64,000 nucleotides of DNA from Alphaproteobacteria bacterium (GTDB taxonomy: Bacteria > Pseudomonadota > Alphaproteobacteria > UBA828): positions 64,001 through 128,000 of the forward strand of contig CAXXVO010000017.1 in the NCBI GenBank assembly GCA_963422645.2. The letters run 5' to 3'. Below, one piece after another: positions 1,643 through 42,554 of this stretch; position 1 is the first letter of the stretch, and the number at the start of each line of letters is the position of its first letter. The position numbers were made by a program, and so were the translations under genes. Below the pieces are notes generated by a model, which was given only the letters and a program-made list of their open reading frames with translations, made no database searches and was not told the DNA's origin.

Positions 1643-2299
1643 CCGTCAGCCTCCCTTCCAAGCAGACCTTCGCCGGGACCCGGCAATGAGCGGCGGCGAT
1701 CCCCTGGCCACCTGCCGCAACATCCCCCTCGACCGGGTCGCCGCCGCCCTCGGCTACCGCAGAGACCCGACCGACCGGGCGCGCTTCAAGCGCGGGGGCT
1801 CGGTCATCAGCATCAACGGCGAGAAGTTCTTCGATCACCTGCGCGGCACGGGAGGGGGTGGCGCCATCGACCTCGTCATCCATGCGACGGGATGCCGCTT
1901 CCCGGAAGCCCTCCGCTTCCTCGGAAGCCATGAGGGGCGGAGGGAGATCACCACCATCCCAGCCGCCCCGCGACGCCTGCGGCTGCCAAGGCCCAGTCCC
2001 CGCGCCTGGCCCAGGGTCCGGGACGCCCTCATCCGCCAACGCGCTATCGGCACCGACGTGCTCGAAGCCTGCCACGGCCGAGGCCTCCTCTACGCCGATG
2101 ACAGGATCAACGCCGTCTTCATCTGCCGAAACGCCAGCGGGCACACGACCGGCGCCGAGATCCTCGGCACCGCGCCGCAGCCCGGAACAAAACAGTCATG
2201 GTCCCCGCGGTTCTGAGCCACCCCGTGGCATGAAACAGGAGCGGTTCGGCTGACGTTTTCCTTGCGCTTGCACCCATTTGCCGTGTCAGGATGGGTATT

Positions 2300-2520
2300 G
2301 GCGGAGGTGGGGACGTGTGAGCGTCGTTATATCGGTGACGTAGTTCCCGATGACAAAACTGCTTCCGGCGGCCGGCTCCGCACCCCGTATTGTACCCGGC
2401 CCGTGGCCGTGGACGCGCGGCAAATTGCACCGCACCCGCTCGTCGGATGCGTGTTCTTCCGACCGCTGTCCCCGCCTCCACCGTGGCGATGCCACGGCGT
2501 GATCGTACGCCGCCGTGGCG
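2300..2520 (+). ncRNA. Candidate IS110 bridge RNA (boundaries approximate)
   Basis: Long 5' non-coding leader with ACAAAAC (2353-2359, identical to the left target plus core) followed by CGGCAAA (2418-2424, identical to the left donor), each ahead of a GC-rich stem. Confidence 0.5.
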
Positions 2521-2544
2521 AGAGCGCAAATGAGGAGGAAGGCG

Positions 2545-3795
2545 ATGAAGACGGAAGGCTTGCACGTCGTCCGGCCGCGCGCGGCGGGTCTGGACGTGCA
2601 CAAGATGGAGATCACCGCGACGGTTCGCCTCTGTGAGGGCGAGGGTGAGCCGGTGGTGGAGACGCGCTGCTTCGGCACGCTGCCGAGCGGTCTGGAGGAG
2701 ATGGTCGCGTGGCTGACCGGTCACGGCGTCGAGGCTGCGGTGATGGAAGGGACCGGGGTCTACTGGCAGGCGCCCTTCGCGGCCCTGGAGGCGGCCGGGC
2801 TCGAGGCGATCCTGGTGCATGCGCGTCAGGTGAAGCAGTTGAAGGGGCGCAAGACCGACGTGGCGGACAGCGTGTGGCTGGCCTGCGTGTGCCAGTTCGG
2901 GCTCTGCACGCCTTCCCACGTTCCGCCTGAGCCGTTCCGGGAGCTGCGCGCACTGAGCCGCCAGCGCCGCGTCCTGGTCAGGCAGCGCTCCGCCGTGCGC
3001 AACCGCGTGCAGAAGATCATCGACCGCGCCGGTGCGCGCATCGGCGGCATCCTCTCCGACGTCTTCGGCGTCAACGGCCGGAAGATCCTCGACGGCCTGG
3101 CGCAGGGGACGGCGCGCGAGGTCATCCTCGCCTCGCTCACCAGCCACGTTGCGAACAAGCTGGAGGGGCTCGGCGAGGCGCTCACCCTGAGCCTGGGCGA
3201 CAACGACCGCTTCATGCTCAACGACCTGCTGGAGGAGCATGACGCGCTTGAGGCGCGCATCGCGTCCTACACCAGGAAGATCGACGGGCAGATGACACCG
3301 TGGGAGGAGCAGCTCCGTCTGCTGACCACCATCCCCGGCATCGACCGCACCGCCGCCTCGACCATCCTCATCGAGATCGGCCCCGACATCGGCGTGTTCG
3401 CCTCCAAGGAGCACTTCGCCGCCTGGGCCGGGCTCTGCCCCGGCAACAACGAGAGCGGGGGCAAGCGCCGCAACGCACGCACCCGCATGGGCTCCAAGAC
3501 CCTGCGCGCCTGCCTCGTCGAGTGTGCCCACGGCGCGGCCCGAACCAAGGGGTGCCAGTTCGAGGCTCATCACCGCGCCCTCGCCGCCCGGCGCGGCTAC
3601 AAGCGCGCCATCGTCGCCGGCGCTCACAAGATGCTGCGCATCATCTATGTGGTGCTCAAGACCGGCAGGCCCTACTACGACCGCACGGCCGACTACGACG
3701 CTCTGATGGTCAAGCGCAACGCTCCTCGGTGGATCCGCATGCTCCGCCGCTACGGCTACATCGAGCCCGTAGGCGCGGAACTCAAGGCCGCCTGA
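2545..3795 (+). CDS. IS110 DEDD recombinase/transposase
   Basis: 'GLDVHK', 'MEGTG', 'KTDVAD', 'TIPGID' and 'NESGGK' motifs; strong RBS GAGGAGG upstream of ATG 2545. Confidence 0.95.
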   Translation: MKTEGLHVVRPRAAGLDVHKMEITATVRLCEGEGEPVVETRCFGTLPSGLEEMVAWLTGHGVEAAVMEGTGVYWQAPFAALEAAGLEAILVHARQVKQLKGRKTDVADSVWLACVCQFGLCTPSHVPPEPFRELRALSRQRRVLVRQRSAVRNRVQKIIDRAGARIGGILSDVFGVNGRKILDGLAQGTAREVILASLTSHVANKLEGLGEALTLSLGDNDRFMLNDLLEEHDALEARIASYTRKIDGQMTPWEEQLRLLTTIPGIDRTAASTILIEIGPDIGVFASKEHFAAWAGLCPGNNESGGKRRNARTRMGSKTLRACLVECAHGAARTKGCQFEAHHRALAARRGYKRAIVAGAHKMLRIIYVVLKTGRPYYDRTADYDALMVKRNAPRWIRMLRRYGYIEPVGAELKAA

Positions 3796-4359
3796 GCGGC
3801 CCGCATCTCGTCAGCCGGCTACGCGGGACCGCTTCGGACCACATCGGGGAAGTCCACCGCTCGTCTCCGCCGCGCCGACCCTGGCGGTCTCAGCCAACGC
3901 CGTGACCTCGGGGTTGGAGCGTCACCGCGCGTCCCTCGCCAGAATCTGTTTCACGGCAAACGCTTCAGGGGCATGGCCCCGGGATCGCGCAAGGCGCGTG
4001 GCGGCTTCTGGCTCCACTGCGACCGAAACCAGCCCGCCCTCGTCATCCTCACCGAGAGCGCCGTCGACGCCATCTCTGCACGAAGCCTGCGCGTCGAGGG
4101 GACGCGCGAGAACGGCGCCGTCGTCGCCTCAACCGCCGGCATCGCCAGCTCGGTCCCGCCCTGGATCAAGGAGTGGAAGCCACGTCGCATCGTCTGTGCC
4201 TACGACGCAGACAGCGCCGGCGACACTGCCGCCGAGCATCTCGTGCTCAACGATCCAAGGGTGAAAAGGTTGCGCCCACGACACGCCAAGGACTGGAACG
4301 AGATGCTCCTGCGGTCTCGATGAAAGCCAGGCCACTCACCGCTCTCGCAGATCAACCAA

Positions 4360-12502: not shown

Positions 12503-12639
12503 GTAACTGCCCAGGTTCTTGCTGTGAAAATTCTCTGGGATTCGGCACAACGCTACCCACGCGACGCCCGTGTGCTCCTCTGGGGTCGCCGGGTTTCACA
12601 GCTCACGATGCCCCTCTTGCGGACTGCGACCGGTAAGCT
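12503..12639 (-). mobile_element. IS66 right-end remnant, cut by the unclassified IS
   Basis: Reverse complement of the last ~137 nt of the IS66 at 40589-42476, starting GTAACTGCCCAGG. Confidence 0.9.
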
Positions 12640-15152
12640 CAGACTTCCTGACCTCGTGATGCTGGCTGTTCTGGGCAGCGTGCCGGGAACTCCTTGAATT
12701 CTGATACATTTCGGTTGTTTCAGGCGGTTTTTCGCTGGGTGTCGCGCCCGAGGTCTGATATTATAATTTGATACCAATTGCACGGTCTCAACCATGCCCA
12801 GTACCCTCCCAATGTGCCCTCCAGAGGCGGTCTCGATCGGCAACAGCTGCTTCGCCGTCCTGATCTCGGACGACACCTTCACCTACTTTTCCAACCTCAT
12901 TCCCTTTGACAGCCACGCCGCCGATGACCGCACGGCCATGCTCTTGCGGATCGGCCGCCTCGCGGCGATCAGCGCGGTCTCGCCGCAGGAACTGGCTGAC
13001 GCTTTCGCTGTCTCGCGCGCGACGGTGCAGCGCGCACGACGGCGCTACCTGGCCGAGGGCGAAGCGGGGTTCATGAAGCCCCGGCGCGGTCGCGGGCCGT
13101 CGGTGTTCACTCCGGAGTTGGCGGAGAAGGCGACGGCGTTGCTGGCATCGGGCCTGAGCGGCTCTGCGGCGGCCCGGGTTCTCGGCGTGTCAGCGCCATC
13201 GGTCAACAAGTGGCGCCGTCAGGGACTGATCGGCAACACGGAGGCGGATGGGGAGCCCGGACGCTCAGCGCTGGCTGCGCCGCCTGACGCGGGTGCGGCT
13301 CCTGAAGGCCGTGTCGATGAAGAGAGTACCGGTGCCCCGGGGCCGGAGACGGCGCCGGGGCTGGAAGCGCAGCCGCAAACGGATCGCAGCGCGCGCGATC
13401 GGCGGGACCGGCAGGCGCCGATGGGGCGTGCGACTTGCGATGTTCCGGCTCGGGTTCTGGCCAGTTGTGGACAGGCGGGGCCGGTCGAACCGCAGTTCGC
13501 CGCCGCCGCCCGCGGTGTCCGCTTCGGCGGCGTGCTCGCCGCCCTGCCGGCCCTGCTGAAGGAAGGTCTTCTCTCCGAGACCGGTCTCCTGCCATTGCTG
13601 CCGAAGGGCTATTACGGCTTGCCTACGATCCTGCTCTTCCTGGCCTTCATGACCTTGGCGCGGGTGCGCAACCCCGAGAGCCTGCGCTACCAGGCGCCGG
13701 GCGAATGGGGCGCCATTCTCGGCCTCGATCGCTGCCCCGAGGTCAAGACGCTGCGCCGCAAGATCGCTCTCATCGCCGACGACGAGGCCGGCGTGCGGGC
13801 GTGGCAGCTCGCCCTTGCCAGGCGCTGGCAGGCGCCGACGAGCCGGAGCTCTGGGCGACGCTGGCCATCGACGGGCACGTCAAGGTCTACTCCGGCCGCA
13901 AGGGGCGCTTGCCCAAGCACTTCGTCTCGCGCGAGAAGCTGTGCCTGCCGGCGAGCGCCAGCTACTGGATCAACGCTCTGGGCGGCAAGCCGCTGCTCTG
14001 TCTGCACAAGCCGCTGGACCCGAAGATGGTCGCGGCCATCGAAGCCGACGTGGTGCCGGCGCTGCAGGAGCTTGGGATCGTTGGCGCCGGGGCGCCGGAC
14101 CTGACCGCCGAGCATCCCGGCCAGCCGGCGCTCACCCTGGTCTTCGACCGCGAGGGCTGGAGCCCGGATCTGTTCCGCCGGCTGGCGAGGCGCGGCGTCG
14201 CCTGCCTGACCTGGCACAAGAACTTCAGGGGCGAGGACTGGCCGGCCGAGGACTTCGGCGCGATGACCGTTCCCATTCACGGACCGGCGGCGGACGGCAG
14301 CGCCACCATGCGGCTGGCTGAGAAGCCGGTGACGTTGCCGAACGGCTTCAGGGTGCGCCAGATCCGCCGCCTGCTCGACAACGGCCGTCAGGTGCCGCTG
14401 ATCACCACCGATCCGCACAAGCCGATGGCTGAGGTTGCGGGCGCCATGTTCTCGCGCTGGTCGCAGGAGAACTTCTTCAAGTACATGCGTGACGAGTTCA
14501 ATCTCGACGCCCTGCCGACCCACGAGCTCGAGCCTCTCGATCCCGCCGCCATGGTCGTCAACCCGCTGCGGCGGGCCTATGACAAGGCAATCCATCGCCT
14601 CGACCGCCAGCTTGGCCGCCTGCGCAACCGCATCGCCGACACGGCCCGGAAGAAGCAGCCGACGGCGGAACTCAGGAGGGAAGTCAGGGACCTCCAGGAT
14701 GTCCGCGACATCGTCAGGGCCAGCCGCAGGGAGACGCCCAAGCACTGCCGGGCCGGCGACCTCGACGAAGCCGAGCAGCTCGATGCCTTGCCCGCGCGCG
14801 AGCGCCTCCTCCTCGACGTCATCCGGATGATCGCCTACCGCGCCGAAACCCGCATGATGCTTCCCGTCATGCAGGCGCAGGGCCACAAGCCCCATCCCCG
14901 GAAACTGCTTCAAGCGCTGCTCACCGCCGATGCCGACATCCTGCCGGATCCTGGCAATGGCCTCCTGCGGGTCCACATTCTTGGCCTCGCAAACGACGCC
15001 TGCGACCGTTGGATCGATGCGGTTCTGAGCGACCTGAACGCCACCGAAACGGTCTTCCCCGGCACCCGTCTGCGCATAGTCTACGACATCGACGGGGCCT
15101 CGGAATCCGCGCGGCTCGTGTCACCTAAAATCAGCAGAGGTCAGGAAGTCTG
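12640..15152 (+). mobile_element. Unclassified IS, copy 1 (CAG...CTG ends)
   Basis: 16-bp terminal repeats CAGACTTCCTGACCTC; matches 22854-25366 inverted. Flanks AAGCT and AATAT do not match each other. Confidence 0.88.
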
Positions 15153-15153
15153 A
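12794..15153 (+). CDS. Putative DDE transposase with N-terminal HTHs, split over two frames near 13835
   Basis: HTH segments, then 'LDRCPEVKTLRRK', 'IDGHVKVY', 'VFDREGWS', 'RWSQENFFKY'. The frame changes at LARRWQA / ADEPELW. Confidence 0.75.
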
Positions 15154-20417: not shown

Positions 20418-20921
20418 GTCGCGCACCGCCTTCACGATGGAGGGCAGGTTGGGGCGCGGGTCCAGCAGCCAGAGCTGGGACTTGGTGGCGAAGGCATGGG
20501 TGCGCTCCTGCATGATCGAGGAGCCTTCGCCGTAGTCCTCGCCGAGGATCACCAGTGCGCCCCCCGTGACCCCGCCGGAGGAGAGATTGGCGAGGGCGTC
20601 CGCCGCCACATTGGCGCCGACGGGCCCCTTGAAGGTGACCGCGCCCCGGATCGGATAATTGACGGAGGCGGCGAGCATGGCGGCGGCCGCAGCCTCGCTG
20701 GCGTTGGCCTCGAAATGCACGCCGAGTTCGCCCAGAATTTCCTCGGCGTCGGAGAGCACGTCGATCAGGTGCGAAACCGGCGCGCCGGGATAGCCGCCCA
20801 CATAGCCCACGCCGCATTCGAGCAGGGCTTTCGTAATTGCCAGGATTCCCTCGCCGCGGAACTCCTGCCCCGCTCCGATGCGCAAGTCCTGAACTTCCTT
20901 GGCGAATGAACGCTCGGCCAT
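20418..20921 (-). pseudogene. iorA: Indolepyruvate:ferredoxin oxidoreductase alpha subunit, 3'-truncated by IS21
   Basis: 'GEGILAITKALLECGVGYVGGYPGAP', 'EANASEAAAAAML'. The ORF runs into the IS21 end after about 168 codons. Confidence 0.75.
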
Positions 20922-21089
20922 TGGTGCCGTCCTGCAAGATTCGGGAGGATTATGCCCTCAATATATTCGATTCCGGTAACTGCCCAGGTCGTCTGATTTG
21001 TCATTTTGGGCCAGTGGATTGAGGCGTTTCTCGTTCGGAGTTGGTGGAAAGGGCTTGACGGGAATTTCGGGAAATGACTCAACAACGAC

Positions 21090-22595
21090 ATGAGCAATCC
21101 CGAGTCGCCGCGCGGCCCTTCGACGGGAGCAGCGCCCGAAACGCCCGCGCAGAAGATCGCCCGCCTGGAGGAGGAGAACGCCCGGCTTCGGGAGGAAAAT
21201 GCCTGGCTTCGGCAGCAGAACGCGCGGCTGGAAGAGCAAGTCGCGCGTCTCGTCGAGCGCATCGAGGAGTTGGAGCGCCGTCTCGGCCTCAACAGCGGCA
21301 ACAGCGGCAAGCCGCCTTCGAGCGATGGGCTGAGGAAGCCGAATTCGAAGCGGCGAACCCGAAGCCTGCGCGGCAAATCGGGCCGCAAGCCCGGTGGCCA
21401 GCCCGGCCACAAGGGCAAGACGCTGCGCCGCGCCGATCACCCGGATCGGGTGAAGGATCACGTCCCGGCTTCCTGCAAGGGATGCGGTTCGCCGCTTTCG
21501 GACGCGGCCAGGGCGGGAACGCCCGTCGCCCGCCAGGTGTTCGATCTGCCCGAGCCGAGCCCCCTGGAGGTGACCGAGCACCGGGCGCATGCCAAGTGCT
21601 GCGGGCATTGCGGGACGGTGACCCGGGCGGCGTTCCCCGACGGGGTGTCGGCGCCGGTGCAGTACGGCCCGCGCATTGCCGGGGTGGCGGTCTACCTTCA
21701 GCACGCTCACTTCCTGCCGGAGGATCGGCTGTCGCAGGTGATGGCCGAGCTCTTCGGCGCGCCGGTGACGGCTGCGACGTTGGCGACGATGAGCGAGAGG
21801 GCGGCCGAGCGGCTGCGGGACGCGGCCTTGCACATACAGGACCTGGCGGCGGGCACGGCGCGGGTGAAACACATGGACGAGACCGGCTTGCGGATCGGCG
21901 GTCAGACGCAGTGGCTTCATGTGATCTGCACGCCGCTGCTGGCGGCGTACCGGGTCAGCGGCAAGCGCGGCGCCCTGCTCTCGGGTGTCTCCGGCATCGT
22001 CGTGCACGATCACTGGAAGCCGTACTTCGCGATGGAAGGGGTGGAGCACGGCCTGTGCAACGCCCATCACCTGCGGGAGTTGCAGGCGCTGGTGGACATC
22101 GAAGGGGAGGCTTGGGCCCGGCGGATGCAGCAGCTCCTGCGCCGAGCCAATCGCGCCGCCCGCATCGCGCTGGACAAGGATATCGCCGTTCCGGCGAGGC
22201 TTGTGGCGCTGATCGAGCGCCGATACGACGAGATCATCGCCGATGCGCTGGCCTTTCACGAGAGCCAACCACCGTTCTCGCCTGGCAAGAGGAAGAAGCG
22301 CCGGAAGCGAAGGATCGGTCACAATCCGGCCTTGAGGCTGCGCGACCACAAATGCGCGGTGCTCCGGTTCCTGATCGACCTCGAGGTCGGGTTCACGAAC
22401 AACGAGGCCGAGCGCGACCTTCGGATGATGAAGCTGCGCCAGAAGATCTCCGGGGGCTTCCGGTCCGCGCAGGGGGCCGAGAACTTCGCCATCCTGCGCA
22501 GCGTCATCACCACCGCCAGAAAGCAGGGCTGGAATATCATCGAAGCCCTGACCAGCCCATCGGATCGGCTCATCGCCACCGTCAAGTGCGCGTAA
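21090..22595 (+). CDS. tnpC: IS66 transposase
   Basis: Leucine zipper, 'NSGKPPSSD', zinc finger, 'DETG', 'CNAHHLREL', '[10 protein letters not shown]'. Confidence 0.95.
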   Translation: MSNPESPRGPSTGAAPETPAQKIARLEEENARLREENAWLRQQNARLEEQVARLVERIEELERRLGLNSGNSGKPPSSDGLRKPNSKRRTRSLRGKSGRKPGGQPGHKGKTLRRADHPDRVKDHVPASCKGCGSPLSDAARAGTPVARQVFDLPEPSPLEVTEHRAHAKCCGHCGTVTRAAFPDGVSAPVQYGPRIAGVAVYLQHAHFLPEDRLSQVMAELFGAPVTAATLATMSERAAERLRDAALHIQDLAAGTARVKHMDETGLRIGGQTQWLHVICTPLLAAYRVSGKRGALLSGVSGIVVHDHWKPYFAMEGVEHGLCNAHHLRELQALVDIEGEAWARRMQQLLRRANRAARIALDKDIAVPARLVALIERRYDEIIADALAFHESQPPFSPGKRKKRRKRRIGHNPALRLRDHKCAVLRFLIDLEVGFTNNEAERDLRMMKLRQKISGGFRSAQGAENFAILRSVITTARKQGWNIIEALTSPSDRLIATVKCA

Positions 22596-22637
22596 GCTCA
22601 CCTGGCACGGGTTCTCCAACAGCGGAGCCATTCTCAT

Positions 22638-22848
22638 AAACGATCATGGTCGACGCCGTGCTGGACCACCCCATAGAATGAAAATCGGTGCCCGTCGCGC
22701 GGGCGGACTTCGGGCCACATCGGGGTAGCTTACCGGTCGCAGTCCGCAAGAGGGGCATCGTGAGCTGTGAAACCCGGCGACCCCAGAGGAGCACACGGGC
22801 GTCGCGTGGGTAGCGTTGTGCCGAATCCCAGAGAATTTTCACAGCAAG
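22638..22848 (+). mobile_element. Miniature IS110-derived element inside the IS66 3' region
   Basis: 35/46 ungapped identity to the IS110 left end (2190-2235), 19/21 to a 3'-end block (3832-3852), and a shared TTTCAC(A/G)GCAA terminus. Confidence 0.7.
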
Positions 22849-22852
22849 AACC

Positions 22853-25212
22853 TCAGACTTCCTGACCTCTGCTGATTTTAGGTGACACGAGCCGCGCGGA
22901 TTCCGAGGCCCCGTCGATGTCGTAGACTATGCGCAGACGGGTGCCGGGGAAGACCGTTTCGGTGGCGTTCAGGTCGCTCAGAACCGCATCGATCCAACGG
23001 TCGCAGGCGTCGTTTGCGAGGCCAAGAATGTGGACCCGCAGGAGGCCATTGCCAGGATCCGGCAGGATGTCGGCATCGGCGGTGAGCAGCGCTTGAAGCA
23101 GTTTCCGGGGATGGGGCTTGTGGCCCTGCGCCTGCATGACGGGAAGCATCATGCGGGTTTCGGCGCGGTAGGCGATCATCCGGATGACGTCGAGGAGGAG
23201 GCGCTCGCGCGCGGGCAAGGCATCGAGCTGCTCGGCTTCGTCGAGGTCGCCGGCCCGGCAGTGCTTGGGCGTCTCCCTGCGGCTGGCCCTGACGATGTCG
23301 CGGACATCCTGGAGGTCCCTGACTTCCCTCCTGAGTTCCGCCGTCGGCTGCTTCTTCCGGGCCGTGTCGGCGATGCGGTTGCGCAGGCGGCCAAGCTGGC
23401 GGTCGAGGCGATGGATTGCCTTGTCATAGGCCCGCCGCAGCGGGTTGACGACCATGGCGGCGGGATCGAGAGGCTCGAGCTCGTGGGTCGGCAGGGCGTC
23501 GAGATTGAACTCGTCACGCATGTACTTGAAGAAGTTCTCCTGCGACCAGCGCGAGAACATGGCGCCCGCAACCTCAGCCATCGGCTTGTGCGGATCGGTG
23601 GTGATCAGCGGCACCTGACGGCCGTTGTCGAGCAGGCGGCGGATCTGGCGCACCCTGAAGCCGTTCGGCAACGTCACCGGCTTCTCAGCCAGCCGCATGG
23701 TGGCGCTGCCGTCCGCCGCCGGTCCGTGAATGGGAACGGTCATCGCGCCGAAGTCCTCGGCCGGCCAGTCCTCGCCCCTGAAGTTCTTGTGCCAGGTCAG
23801 GCAGGCGACGCCGCGCCTCGCCAGCCGGCGGAACAGATCCGGGCTCCAGCCCTCGCGGTCGAAGACCAGGGTGAGCGCCGGCTGGCCGGGATGCTCGGCG
23901 GTCAGGTCCGGCGCCCCGGCGCCAACGATCCCAAGCTCCTGCAGCGCCGGCACCACGTCGGCTTCGATGGCCGCGACCATCTTCGGGTCCAGCGGCTTGT
24001 GCAGACAGAGCAGCGGCTTGCCGCCCAGAGCGTTGATCCAGTAGCTGGCGCTCGCCGGCAGGCACAGCTTCTCGCGCGAGACGAAGTGCTTGGGCAAGCG
24101 CCCCTTGCGGCCGGAGTAGACCTTGACGTGCCCGTCGATGGCCAGCGTCGCCCAGAGCTCCGGCTCGTCGGCGCCTGCCAGCGCCTGGCAAGGGCGAGCT
24201 GCCACGCCCGCACGCCGGCCTCGTCGTCGGCGATGAGAGCGATCTTGCGGCGCAGCGTCTTGACCTCGGGGCAGCGATCGAGGCCGAGAATGGCGCCCCA
24301 TTCGCCCGGCGCCTGGTAGCGCAGGCTCTCGGGGTTGCGCACCCGCGCCAAGGTCATGAAGGCCAGGAAGAGCAGGATCGTAGGCAAGCCGTAATAGCCC
24401 TTCGGCAGCAATGGCAGGAGACCGGTCTCGGAGAGAAGACCTTCCTTCAGCAGGGCCGGCAGGGCGGCGAGCACGCCGCCGAAGCGGACACCGCGGGCGG
24501 CGGCGGCGAACTGCGGTTCGACCGGCCCCGCCTGTCCACAACTGGCCAGAACCCGAGCCGGAACATCGCAAGTCGCACGCCCCATCGGCGCCTGCCGGTC
24601 CCGCCGATCGCGCGCGCTGCGATCCGTTTGCGGCTGCGCTTCCAGCCCCGGCGCCGTCTCCGGCCCCGGGGCACCGGTACTCTCTTCATCGACACGGCCT
24701 TCAGGAGCCGCACCCGCGTCAGGCGGCGCAGCCAGCGCTGAGCGTCCGGGCTCCCCATCCGCCTCCGTGTTGCCGATCAGTCCCTGACGGCGCCACTTGT
24801 TGACCGATGGCGCTGACACGCCGAGAACCCGGGCCGCCGCAGAGCCGCTCAGGCCCGATGCCAGCAACGCCGTCGCCTTCTCCGCCAACTCCGGAGTGAA
24901 CACCGACGGCCCGCGACCGCGCCGGGGCTTCATGAACCCCGCTTCGCCCTCGGCCAGGTAGCGCCGTCGTGCGCGCTGCACCGTCGCGCGCGAGACAGCG
25001 AAAGCGTCAGCCAGTTCCTGCGGCGAGACCGCGCTGATCGCCGCGAGGCGGCCGATCCGCAAGAGCATGGCCGTGCGGTCATCGGCGGCGTGGCTGTCAA
25101 AGGGAATGAGGTTGGAAAAGTAGGTGAAGGTGTCGTCCGAGATCAGGACGGCGAAGCAGCTGTTGCCGATCGAGACCGCCTCTGGAGGGCACATTGGGAG
25201 GGTACTGGGCAT
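22853..25212 (-). CDS. Putative DDE transposase, same two-frame split as copy 1
   Basis: ORF translations are identical to those of 12794-15153. Confidence 0.75.
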
Positions 25213-25366
25213 GGTTGAGACCGTGCAATTGGTATCAAATTATAATATCAGACCTCGGGCGCGACACCCAGCGAAAAACCGCCTGAAACAACCGAAATGT
25301 ATCAGAATTCAAGGAGTTCCCGGCACGCTGCCCAGAACAGCCAGCATCACGAGGTCAGGAAGTCTG
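22854..25366 (-). mobile_element. Unclassified IS, copy 2
   Basis: Same 16-bp terminal repeats as copy 1 and a 5-bp duplication AACCT (22849-22853, 25367-25371). Confidence 0.92.
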
Positions 25367-25537
25367 AACCTGGGCAGTTACCGATTCCGTAGAACGCAGA
25401 GTTGTTCTATTGGATTCCGTAGTTGTGCGTGGGGTTCCGCCGCGCGAAACCCGTGGATATGCTTGCCCGTCATTCGAATTCATGTGCTGCGCCGCGACGC
25501 CTCAAGTCGACCGGCGCTCTCTCCGAGGATATCCGCG

Positions 25538-40321: not shown

Positions 40322-40702
40322 GGTGGCAACCTCATTGAGCGATGGGGAGAAAGGCGCGTGTGCGCGCAGTAACGCACGCCGGGGCGGCCCCGCCGGCGCG
40401 GCGGAAATTAGAAGAAGAGCGCGGCGAGCGCAACCTGAGTAGCGCAGACGCGTCGCTCGGCAGCCTACGGGCCTGAGCATAGGATGAACCGGGCAGCAAA
40501 GCGGACCGGAGCGCGCGACTGCGCGCCGCGCCGAACGGCGCGTAGCCAAGCAAGCGGAGCGCGCGCCCGGCGACTGAGGGAAATGAACGTAACTGCCCAG
40601 GTCGTCTGATTTGTCATTTTGGGCCAGTGGATTGAGGCGTTTCTCGTTCGGAGTTGGTGGAAAGGGCTTGACGGGAATTTCGGGAAATGACTCAACAACG
40701 AC

Positions 40703-42208
40703 ATGAGCAATCCCGAGTCGCCGCGCGGCCCTTCGACGGGAGCAGCGCCCGAAACGCCCGCGCAGAAGATCGCCCGCCTGGAGGAGGAGAACGCCCGGCT
40801 TCGGGAGGAAAATGCCTGGCTTCGGCAGCAGAACGCGCGGCTGGAAGAGCAAGTCGCGCGTCTCGTCGAGCGCATCGAGGAGTTGGAGCGCCGTCTCGGC
40901 CTCAACAGCGGCAACAGCGGCAAGCCGCCTTCGAGCGATGGGCTGAGGAAGCCGAATTCGAAGCGGCGAACCCGAAGCCTGCGCGGCAAATCGGGCCGCA
41001 AGCCCGGTGGCCAGCCCGGCCACAAGGGCAAGACGCTGCGCCGCGCCGATCACCCGGATCGGGTGAAGGATCACGTCCCGGCTTCCTGCAAGGGATGCGG
41101 TTCGCCGCTTTCGGACGCGGCCAGGGCGGGAACGCCCGTCGCCCGCCAGGTGTTCGATCTGCCCGAGCCGAGCCCCCTGGAGGTGACCGAGCACCGGGCG
41201 CATGCCAAGTGCTGCGGGCATTGCGGGACGGTGACCCGGGCGGCGTTCCCCGACGGGGTGTCGGCGCCGGTGCAGTACGGCCCGCGCATTGCCGGGGTGG
41301 CGGTCTACCTTCAGCACGCTCACTTCCTGCCGGAGGATCGGCTGTCGCAGGTGATGGCCGAGCTCTTCGGCGCGCCGGTGACGGCTGCGACGTTGGCGAC
41401 GATGAGCGAGAGGGCGGCCGAGCGGCTGCGGGACGCGGCCTTGCACATACAGGACCTGGCGGCGGGCACGGCGCGGGTGAAACACATGGACGAGACCGGC
41501 TTGCGGATCGGCGGTCAGACGCAGTGGCTTCATGTGATCTGCACGCCGCTGCTGGCGGCGTACCGGGTCAGCGGCAAGCGCGGCGCCCTGCTCTCGGGTG
41601 TCTCCGGCATCGTCGTGCACGATCACTGGAAGCCGTACTTCGCGATGGAAGGGGTGGAGCACGGCCTGTGCAACGCCCATCACCTGCGGGAGTTGCAGGC
41701 GCTGGTGGACATCGAAGGGGAGGCTTGGGCCCGGCGGATGCAGCAGCTCCTGCGCCGAGCCAATCGCGCCGCCCGCATCGCGCTGGACAAGGATATCGCC
41801 GTTCCGGCGAGGCTTGTGGCGCTGATCGAGCGCCGATACGACGAGATCATCGCCGATGCGCTGGCCTTTCACGAGAGCCAACCACCGTTCTCGCCTGGCA
41901 AGAGGAAGAAGCGCCGGAAGCGAAGGATCGGTCACAATCCGGCCTTGAGGCTGCGCGACCACAAATGCGCGGTGCTCCGGTTCCTGATCGACCTCGAGGT
42001 CGGGTTCACGAACAACGAGGCCGAGCGCGACCTTCGGATGATGAAGCTGCGCCAGAAGATCTCCGGGGGCTTCCGGTCCGCGCAGGGGGCCGAGAACTTC
42101 GCCATCCTGCGCAGCGTCATCACCACCGCCAGAAAGCAGGGCTGGAATATCATCGAAGCCCTGACCAGCCCATCGGATCGGCTCATCGCCACCGTCAAGT
42201 GCGCGTAA
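40703..42208 (+). CDS. tnpC: IS66 transposase
   Basis: Protein identical to that of 21090-22595. Confidence 0.95.
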
Positions 42209-42250
42209 GCTCACCTGGCACGGGTTCTCCAACAGCGGAGCCATTCTCAT

Positions 42251-42461
42251 AAACGATCATGGTCGACGCCGTGCTGGACCACCCCATAGAATGAAAATCG
42301 GTGCCCGTCGCGCGGGCGGACTTCGGGCCACATCGGGGTAGCTTACCGGTCGCAGTCCGCAAGAGGGGCATCGTGAGCTGTGAAACCCGGCGACCACAGA
42401 GGAGCACACGGGCGTCGCGTGGGTAGCGTTGTGCCGAATCCCAGAGAATTTTCACAGCAAG
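42251..42461 (+). mobile_element. Miniature IS110-derived element inside IS66 copy B
   Basis: Same as 22638-22848, with one substitution seen (CGACCACAG vs CGACCCCAG). Confidence 0.7.
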
Positions 42462-42554
42462 AACCTGGGCAGTTACAAATGAACAGGGCCCCGGGCTGGT
42501 ACAGCCCGGGGCCGCTGGTATAGTGCGCGCGGTTTCAGACCCGGGAGAGGACGA

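Follow-up and report, generated by a model that had tools for sequence, protein, structure and literature searches.

MITEPpu9 is a MITE (miniature inverted-repeat transposable element) associated with the IS110 family of insertion sequences (IS). It lacks a transposase, is bounded by ISPpu9-like ends and has been described as a hitchhiker (PMC12288879). According to the same account, its circles form only when the transposase is supplied, its eight copies in Pseudomonas putida KT2440 usually lie directly downstream of the ISPpu9 transposase gene, and its A box is a 43-bp stretch with an imperfect inverted repeat. Here we describe a miniature IS110 derivative of 207 bp (termed the mini) located at 22642-22848, forward strand, of a 64,000-nucleotide stretch of an alphaproteobacterial genome (positions 64,001 to 128,000 of contig CAXXVO010000017.1), hereafter the window. 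The mini lies in the non-coding tail of an 1888-bp element of the unrelated IS66 family, 15 bp inside its right end. These 207 bp are very probably a non-autonomous, MITE-like derivative of the IS110 group that was captured by IS66, was passively amplified with it and is now a fossil passenger.

To the extent that MITEPpu9 is described in the published account (PMC12288879), the mini resembles it in being short, in lacking a transposase and in having IS110-like left-end (LE) and right-end (RE) bounds, and its left-end block of ~42-46 nt with a hairpin compares with the 43-bp A box. A further likeness is that MITEPpu9 can stand apart from the transposase gene and relies on transposase provided in trans, as the mini would. 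The interiors differ: MITEPpu9 carries a distinct, abundant small RNA (sRNA) gene, ssr9, whereas the interior of the mini is the IS110 3′ non-coding end. The setting differs as well, the mini being embedded in an unrelated IS66 element and raised to 103 copies by IS66 transposition. An IS110-associated MITE is already known in MITEPpu9; what is new is the right-end interior, the IS66 host and the copy number driven by IS66. Among the reports listed in a literature search on IS110, bridge RNA, seekRNA, IS1111 and MITE, no IS110-derived miniature inside another IS was found.

The mini consists of an LE part of ~42 nt joined to an RE part of ~165 nt. On its left stands AAAC (22638-22641); on its right comes AACCT..., which forms the inner edge of the right inverted repeat of IS66. 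The left-end block (22642-22685, forward strand, as are all features of the mini given here) comprises TCATGG, a short hairpin in which TGGTC (22647-22651) pairs with GACCA (22664-22668), and CCACCCC.TAGAATGAAAAT. The RE part contains the 18-mer CTTCGGRCCACATCGGGG (22708-22725), a right-end block common to minis and IS110s, and a second hairpin (22777-22805) formed by GCGAC (22777-22781) and GTCGC (22801-22805). The right terminus, TTTCACAGCAAG, occupies 22837-22848; IS110 and the minis of a related genome, G011, have TTTCACGGCAA(A) here. A TGAAAAT(GT) arm in the left block and (AC)ATTTTCA near the right end form a sub-terminal inverted repeat. No recombinase open reading frame (ORF) is present in the mini, and no reading frame is conserved among the five minis compared because these differ by indels of 1-4 nt. 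Being small (207 bp) and non-coding, with ends that match a transposase-encoding element, the mini can be classed with MITEs. It has the sub-terminal repeat of 7-9 bp instead of terminal inverted repeats, and no duplication beyond a short A-rich core. The classical inverted repeats and target duplication of MITEs are thus absent, as expected for an IS110-type element, and the mini is therefore called MITE-like.

A full-length IS110-family element resident in the window (2194-3961, forward strand; 1768 bp counting one AAAC) was used for comparison. Its recombinase matches Pfam DEDD_Tnp_IS110 and Transposase_20 and the NCBIfam model 'IS110 family RNA-guided transposase' (270.2 bits, cut-off 140), and 47 full copies with identity of at least 99.8% are found in the genome. 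Its extent, with AAAC on both sides, was fixed via uninterrupted copies of the surrounding repeat. This multi-copy repeat, in which the IS110 is nested, runs from before the window start to ~4422, and about two dozen uninterrupted copies of it show the exact empty site.

The first-pass annotation of the window, made from the sequence alone, had claimed three similarities between the segment and the ends of this IS110, and all three are present at the coordinates claimed. The stretch 22638-22683 is identical to 2190-2235 at 35/46 positions without gaps, the 21-mer at 22708-22728 matches 3832-3852 at 19/21, and the terminal TTTCACAGCAA matches IS110 TTTCACGGCAA. Dinucleotide (composition-matched) shuffles of the mini served as the null model for the alignments. 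The first 60 nt of the mini and of the IS110 gave a local score of 35 (shuffles 13.2 +/- 2.4), the RE part and the IS110 3′ non-coding region a local score of 37 (17.4 +/- 2.5), and the whole mini, aligned collinearly with the IS110 ends, a global score of 75 (0.8 +/- 9.4). None of 2000, 2000 and 1000 shuffles, respectively, reached these values, so the alignment on which the annotation relied withstands the comparison. Reverse-complement controls gave no signal (347/500 and 440/500 shuffles reached their scores). When the window was compared with itself by blastn, the mini had two matches, with E = 0.002 and 0.007; they fall in the ends of one and the same IS110 and agree with it in strand and order.

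The right-end homology forms a 43-column block around the common 18-mer. The length of the RE part (~165 nt) is close to that of the whole IS110 3′ non-coding end (3796-3961, forward strand, 166 nt), its counterpart, so that the mini corresponds to the initial ~42 nt of the left end fused to the entire right non-coding end. The sub-terminal repeats of IS110, TGAAACAG/CTGTTTCA, covary with TGAAAAT(GT)/(AC)ATTTTCA of the mini over 7-9 bp. The recombinase and the long 5′ leader (2240-2545, forward strand), a putative bridge-RNA region, are confirmed to be missing from the mini, as had been noted.

Judged from the sequences of IS66 relatives, which lack it at its exact boundaries, the 207-bp segment is a true insertion in the IS66 tail. 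When 61 related genomes were searched with the complete IS66 element, close relatives came up in two congeners, G011 and G004. The relatives in G011 (L002 and L015, 93% identity) aligned to element positions 1-1666 and then directly to the terminal 22 bp. Those in G004 (L003 and L016, 90% identity) gave blast alignments to positions 1-1616, and in the alignment of L003 the terminal repeat continues at the same junction as in G011. The empty sites were read from an alignment of one locus per genome, each second locus having matching blast coordinates; they are ...AGAAAC|AACCTGGGCAGTTAC in G011 and ...ATGAAC|AACCTGGGTAGTTAC in G004. In this genome, 207 bp stand between AAAC and AACC, where both congeners have none. 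A contig from run X19, of ~91% identity, covers 41900-42254, within a second copy of the IS66 element, and then continues as AACCTGGGCAGTTACGA, providing an independent empty site with its own-lineage CATAAAC. Close IS66 relatives are thus found without the segment, and the boundaries at which they lack it are IS110-like. The claim that a recombinase-less miniature IS110 resides inside IS66 is borne out by the homology and by these exact boundaries.

All 88 complete minis in this genome have IS66 flanks and none is free-standing. The mini left end follows the IS66 3′ anchor in 103/103 cases, with no empty-site junction, and every incomplete mini is interrupted either by the insertion of another IS or by the end of a contig. 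The free-standing copies that the first-pass annotation had proposed to look for do exist in G011, as four complete minis and two remnants, and are absent from this genome. The complete G011 minis (206-211 bp) lie at four unrelated loci, each with ...AAC before and AA... after it; identity to the window copy is 87% for one and 72% for another, and blast aligned the remaining two only in part. Empty sites for the G011 minis were searched for and not found. The right flank of G011 copy a matches contig C8 of this genome starting precisely at the junction, and the left side differs. From these independent G011 copies, the mini is seen, at the level of sequence, to belong to a MITE-like family that moves on its own.

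The two G011 remnants are left ends inside another repeat. They are of b-type (L118:1499-1540 and L120), ~38 nt long, end in GAATGAAAAC and lie in two copies of that repeat; they look like the product of a deletion between an internal GAAAA and the right end. A third copy of the same repeat, L058, holds the complete mini d.

The host element in the window is represented by two copies and a remnant, all with the mini or a part of it. Copy A (20976-22853, forward strand) has its last 10 bp displaced by a 2515-bp IS inserted at 22853. Copy B (40589-42476, forward strand) is intact, is flanked on both sides by the 8-bp duplication AAATGAAC, and holds its mini at 42255-42461, forward strand, next to the IS66 right inverted repeat at 42462-42476. 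The two copies are one base apart (22783, C vs A). The remnant (12513-12639, reverse strand) is the right-hand 127 bp of a copy, with part of the mini at 12518-12639; here the mini is cut at its position 86 by the 2515-bp IS (12639-15153). The recurrences that had been reported at 42251-42461 and, reverse-complemented, at 12518-12639 are therefore real.

The only ORF of the element (21090-22595, forward strand) encodes a TnpC-type IS66-family transposase of 501 aa, with matches to Pfam DDE_Tnp_IS66 (1.2e-38), zf-IS66 and DUF6444 and to NCBIfam transpos_IS66 (290.9 bits, cut-off 180). The extent of the intact element, 1888 bp, was set by comparing all genomic copies; its termini are GTAACTGCCCAGG... 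on the left and ...CCTGGGCAGTTAC on the right, and the inverted repeats begin GTAA. The genome contains 66 full-length copies with identity of at least 99.3%, and identical 8-bp flanks, indicating an 8-bp target duplication, are seen in 48 of them. The accessory tnpA and tnpB of canonical IS66 are absent from the 1888-bp unit, and with the 501-aa ORF standing alone the host is assigned to the single-ORF subgroup of IS66, which we take to be the ISBst12-type subgroup. It shares with single-ORF IS66-family elements the lone TnpC-type DDE transposase, the GTAA ends and the 8-bp target duplications, and differs from them by the foreign 207-bp passenger just within the right inverted repeat. The G+C content of the window is 67%.

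The target preference of the mini resembles that of IS110, as far as flanking sequences can tell. At 32 unique sites the left flank of IS110 reads R-A-C-A-A-A-A-C (A 28/32, C 32, A 31, A 32, A 32, A 32, C 32), and AA opens the right flank in 31/32. The left flanks of the minis, CATAAAC, CAAGAAAC, CAAAAAAAC, ACAAAAAAC and CGATAAC, are A-rich and end in ...AAC like the IS110 targets.

The IS110 leader contains a target-like motif, ACAAAAC (2353-2359, forward strand), identical to the left flank of IS110 targets, and 65 nt downstream a donor-like motif, CGGCAAA (2418-2424, forward strand), identical to the IS110 right end plus core. Their frequencies in the dinucleotide-shuffled leader were 0.002 (ACAAAAC) and 0.011 (CGGCAAA), with both together in 0/20000; the IS110 of G011 has kept this leader and both of its motifs. 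In bridge RNAs of the IS110 group, as described, the left guides are top-strand sequence and the donor loop comes after the target loop (PMC11208160). The order of the two motifs fits this arrangement, and the leader is therefore taken as a probable bridge-RNA region. The mini has neither a target-like nor a donor-guide-like motif, the IS110 3′ non-coding region has no target-like motif, and no positionally consistent match of at least 7 nt between mini and own flanks was found in the five minis. Lacking the leader, the sole carrier of the guide-like motifs, the mini probably makes no bridge RNA; with no protein and, by this reasoning, no guide, it would need both in trans.

The resident IS110 compares well with IS621 and the IS110 group as characterised in PMC11208160. 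It shares the DEDD/Tnp recombinase, an LE non-coding region (352 nt) longer than that of the RE (166 nt), the order target-donor of the 5′ leader motifs, a site preference and a short A-rich core. It differs in that its target is strongly conserved in the left half only (32 sites), and both it and the minis differ in having sub-terminal repeats of 7-9 bp where 2-3 bp are given for the IS110 group; the mini further lacks the recombinase and the leader. With the IS1111 group, on the descriptions in PMC11187229 and PMC11208160, minis and IS110 share the covarying sub-terminal repeats of 7-9 bp and a sizeable conserved right non-coding end. The seekRNA of that group is placed in the right end (PMC11187229), whereas here no target-like motif is present in the right end and it is the left non-coding end that is longer, so that a seekRNA gene within the mini lacks support. 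A bridge or seek RNA encoded in the right end of the mini was considered as a candidate and rejected, there being no target-like motif and no consistent flank match in five minis.

These results suggest the following history for the captured and amplified derivative. A deletion would have left an IS110-type element with ~42 nt of LE and the whole ~165-nt 3′ non-coding RE, the recombinase gene and 5′ leader being lost. An IS110-type recombinase acting in trans would then have placed the ancestral mini at an A-rich ...ATAAAC site 15 bp from the IS66 right end, just inside the terminal inverted repeat, an insertion that appears to have left IS66 transposition intact. IS110 and IS66 both favour A/T-rich sites, and this may explain why the mini landed in the IS66 tail. 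Two IS110 copies were also seen within 5-6 bp of an IS66 end (G000 C21:59026 and C8:774881-776644). Expansion of one IS66 lineage would have copied the mini along, giving the 66 full copies and 103 3′ ends. In this genome it would by now be a fossil passenger, with no free copies, no excision scars and a right terminus that has drifted from the resident guide-like motif. That terminus reads CAGCAAG, 5/7 against the CGGCAAA of the leader; in the G011 minis it is CGGCAAA or CGGCAAG, with 7/7 in a, b and d and 6/7 in c. The drift fits the lack of independent minis in this genome. With no free-standing copies, no empty sites and a right end two of seven positions off, the mini looks like a decayed passenger amplified solely by IS66 and is at present most likely inert.

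Several observations weigh against this account. At the junctions, AAG on the right is not a clean repeat of AAAC on the left. The X19 empty site predicts ...GCAAAC AACC by conservative exchange and ...GCAAG AACC is observed, so that either at least one change since then or another ancestral target must be supposed. No single crossover or core register fits all junction variants; with AAAC on the left side and AAG(AAC) on the right, the crossover point is not fixable by sequence alone. As to parentage, the resident IS110 is not the direct parent (139/230 alignment columns are identical), and in the first 2-3 nt of the left end it is unlike every mini, making a perfect match of the minis to one IS110 right-donor guide unlikely. 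Full-length parental IS110s were among the things that the first-pass annotation had proposed to look for; no full-length element with mini-type ends appeared in the collections searched: none in 21 genomes of the genus or 49 of the order, none in a species-representative genome collection scanned for the mini-type motif, and none in a metagenome scan with the 18-mer. In the species-representative collection the motif occurred at just two loci of a single record, and these resemble the G011 copies. Of 30 loci from the metagenome scan, L088 alone, which is a truncated relative of IS110, had flanking similarity, and the remaining 29 appear to match by chance. The order-level pattern search had matches in 4/49 genomes, all within the genus, and a plasmid collection searched in a distant mode had no match. 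Finally, the bridge-RNA assignment rests on two short motifs and not on a validated fold: the minimum free energy of the IS110 leader is ordinary (z = -0.40), no convincing two-loop bridge-RNA shape was seen, and the sub-terminal inverted repeats of 7-9 bp found in the mini/IS110 family are a feature that PMC11208160 associates with the IS1111 group, which has its RNA in the right end.

A different possibility, which we consider unlikely, is that the module has been kept for a function, as a small RNA (like Ssr9 in MITEPpu9) or as an outward promoter at the IS66 end, and that its conserved blocks are functional beyond transposition. A putative sigma-70-like promoter, TCGACG-18 nt-TAGAAT (22650-22679, forward strand), points rightward, out through the IS66 end. 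It was found on the copy B equivalent (42263-42292) with 9/12 matches, against an average of 0.1 sites in shuffles. TAGAAT is retained by 5/5 minis, where IS110 has TGGCAT; the -35 match, however, is limited to a-type minis. Length (206-211 bp) and architecture are kept in five copies, one of them merely 72% identical to the window copy. The pairing of the left-end hairpin is retained among the five minis with two pairs changed on both sides. The right-end hairpin is the only helix retained across all 10 right ends compared (five minis, three full-length IS110s, one truncated IS110 and one internal-deletion derivative), and two of its pairs are compensated between the clades, GCGAC/GTCGC in the minis and CCAAC/GTTGG in the IS110s. 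The 18-mer is identical, with one R position, in 9/10 right ends, and the tenth, the deletion derivative of G006, is one base off.

These points for a function are countered by the folding and sampling data. The minimum free energy of the mini, -72.7 kcal/mol, is no better than that of shuffles (-75.6 +/- 4.7; z = +0.63), nor is that of the other strand (z = -0.08), so the folding claimed for the segment does not exceed chance. The covariation term of RNAalifold is unfavourable (+1.76 for five minis, +0.23 for 10 right ends), and Rfam scans of 20900-22900 and 2100-4100 with E up to 10 found nothing on the mini or the IS110 ends. The sequences represent two or three independent lineages, and the near-identical copies in this genome reflect the recent IS66 burst and not selection. 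Conservation could equally reflect cis-sites for recombination. A conserved structured RNA, the alternative offered in the first-pass annotation, is hence weakly supported, by the two hairpins with compensated pairs and not by energy, covariation or Rfam. Contigs of four sequencing runs, three labelled as RNA and one presumed to be RNA, were compared with the window. X15 had no match, X16, X18 and X19 carry IS66-relative sequence to 42254 at most, and none covers 42255-42461, so these runs are uninformative on its expression.

The closing stem GCTGTGAAA/TTTCACAGC, which had been put forward as part of the fold, was rejected as a conserved helix, although it is in the minimum-free-energy fold of this copy. 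Among the five minis 84% of its cells pair, one pair is changed on both sides and two central pairs are broken in 3-4/5; 106/500 shuffles do as well, with the structure derived from the window copy itself. A similar GCCGTGA in IS110 sits at a non-homologous place.

From the sequences compared, the hairpins, the 18-mer and the promoter-like site could equally be cis-sites for recombination, promoter parts or RNA; that the conserved blocks mark cis-sites in the IS110 ends is plausible. In the minis and IS110s under comparison, the left-end hairpin repeats in its 3′ arm (22664-22673), as G[G/A]NCCACCCC, the GG[A/G]CCAC core of the right-end 18-mer (22708-22725). In the seven elements with both ends seen, the R of the 18-mer and the T/C of the left-end CATGG[T/C]C make A-T, G-C or G-T and never A-C. 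The recurrence may reflect a binding site present twice, or a pairing. A bolder proposal, to which we give only a small chance, is that the ~42 nt of LE and ~165 nt of RE constitute a functional module, and that the IS110s of this lineage need or exploit much more cis-sequence than the ~14 nt read by the bridge RNA. The left-end hairpin, the 7-9-bp sub-terminal repeat, the 18-mer and the right-end hairpin may be the parts of such a module, with TAGAAT perhaps giving transcription of its own. If so, the 103 IS66-borne minis could serve the recombinase of the resident IS110 as decoy or half-matching donor sites, or could be outward promoters at IS66 ends, and the activities of two unrelated IS families would be coupled.

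It is very unlikely that the mini is still an active donor, moved by the recombinase and bridge RNA of the resident IS110, with the IS66 copies as a reservoir. The 47 full IS110 copies, with their high identity and tandem arrays, look recently active, the mini retains the LE and RE blocks common to IS110, and a half-match to the bridge RNA can suffice for recombination, as stated in a preprint (10.64898/2026.08.31.748434). Against these, none of the 88 complete minis is free-standing and none of the 103 IS66 3′ ends is empty; the right terminus has the 5/7 match to the donor-guide-like motif, and the first two LE bases are unlike those of IS110. The earlier proposal of a non-autonomous donor of MITE type therefore stands for the nature of the element, a MITE-like derivative, and not for the copy in this genome, which shows no sign of present competence. 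That the segment is ancestral IS66 3′ sequence lost by the relatives, or resembles IS110 by chance or convergence, can be dismissed: it does lie wholly within the IS66 non-coding tail and is present in every IS66 copy here, but precisely these 207 bp are missing from three separate IS66 lineages, a unit with the same ends stands free at four G011 loci, and no shuffle attains the alignment scores.

The captured IS110 derivative provides a natural map of the sequence that an IS110-type element keeps after losing its recombinase and guide RNA. The 18-mer, the two hairpins and the covarying sub-terminal repeat are common to the five minis, three full-length IS110s, one truncated IS110 and one internal-deletion derivative. 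These end features are candidate cis-sites for excision, circle formation or promoter assembly, and they are treated as dispensable in bridge-recombinase engineering. The mini is also a case of hitchhiking, one mobile element having been raised from 1 to 103 copies by the transposase of another family, which is relevant when repeat families are counted or classified. In annotation, the 3′ region of this IS66 is not to be taken for native IS66 sequence. In other respects the mini is what IS decay ordinarily yields in a genome saturated with IS.

The resident IS110 occurs in head-to-tail tandem arrays elsewhere in the genome (G000 contigs, all outside the window). There are five copies at C11:48117-56954, three each at C16:27181-32480 and C10:44761-50061, and two each at C8:169706-173237, C8:727932-731464 and C5:476529-480061, with AAAC or AAAAC between the units. 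Since its own right end plus core, GGCAAAC, is similar to its target RACAAAAC, the element may insert beside itself. Another IS110 deletion derivative was seen in G006 (L047:1392-1710), in which IS110 positions ~675-803 are joined to ~1588-1674 and the middle of the recombinase gene is lost.

Minis are themselves targets for other elements. Insertions of other IS at recurring A/T-rich spots have broken 13 of the 103, and contig ends interrupt two more. The recurring breaks fall at ~38-46, 86-90 and 192-199 of the mini (window 22679-22687, 22727-22731 and 22833-22840), and the fragments comprise five of 38-207, four of 1-90, four of 86-207, five of 1-198/199 and five of 192/193-207. The IS66 element also inserts into the minis of other IS66 copies. 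The 2515-bp IS is present in the window as two identical inverted copies (12639-15153 and 22853-25367), of which one lies 10 bp from an IS66 end and the other interrupts a mini at its position 86. It carries an HTH ORF and a Pfam Transposase_29 ORF between terminal inverted repeats of 17 bp, and its terminal 100 nt have on the order of a hundred matches in the genome.

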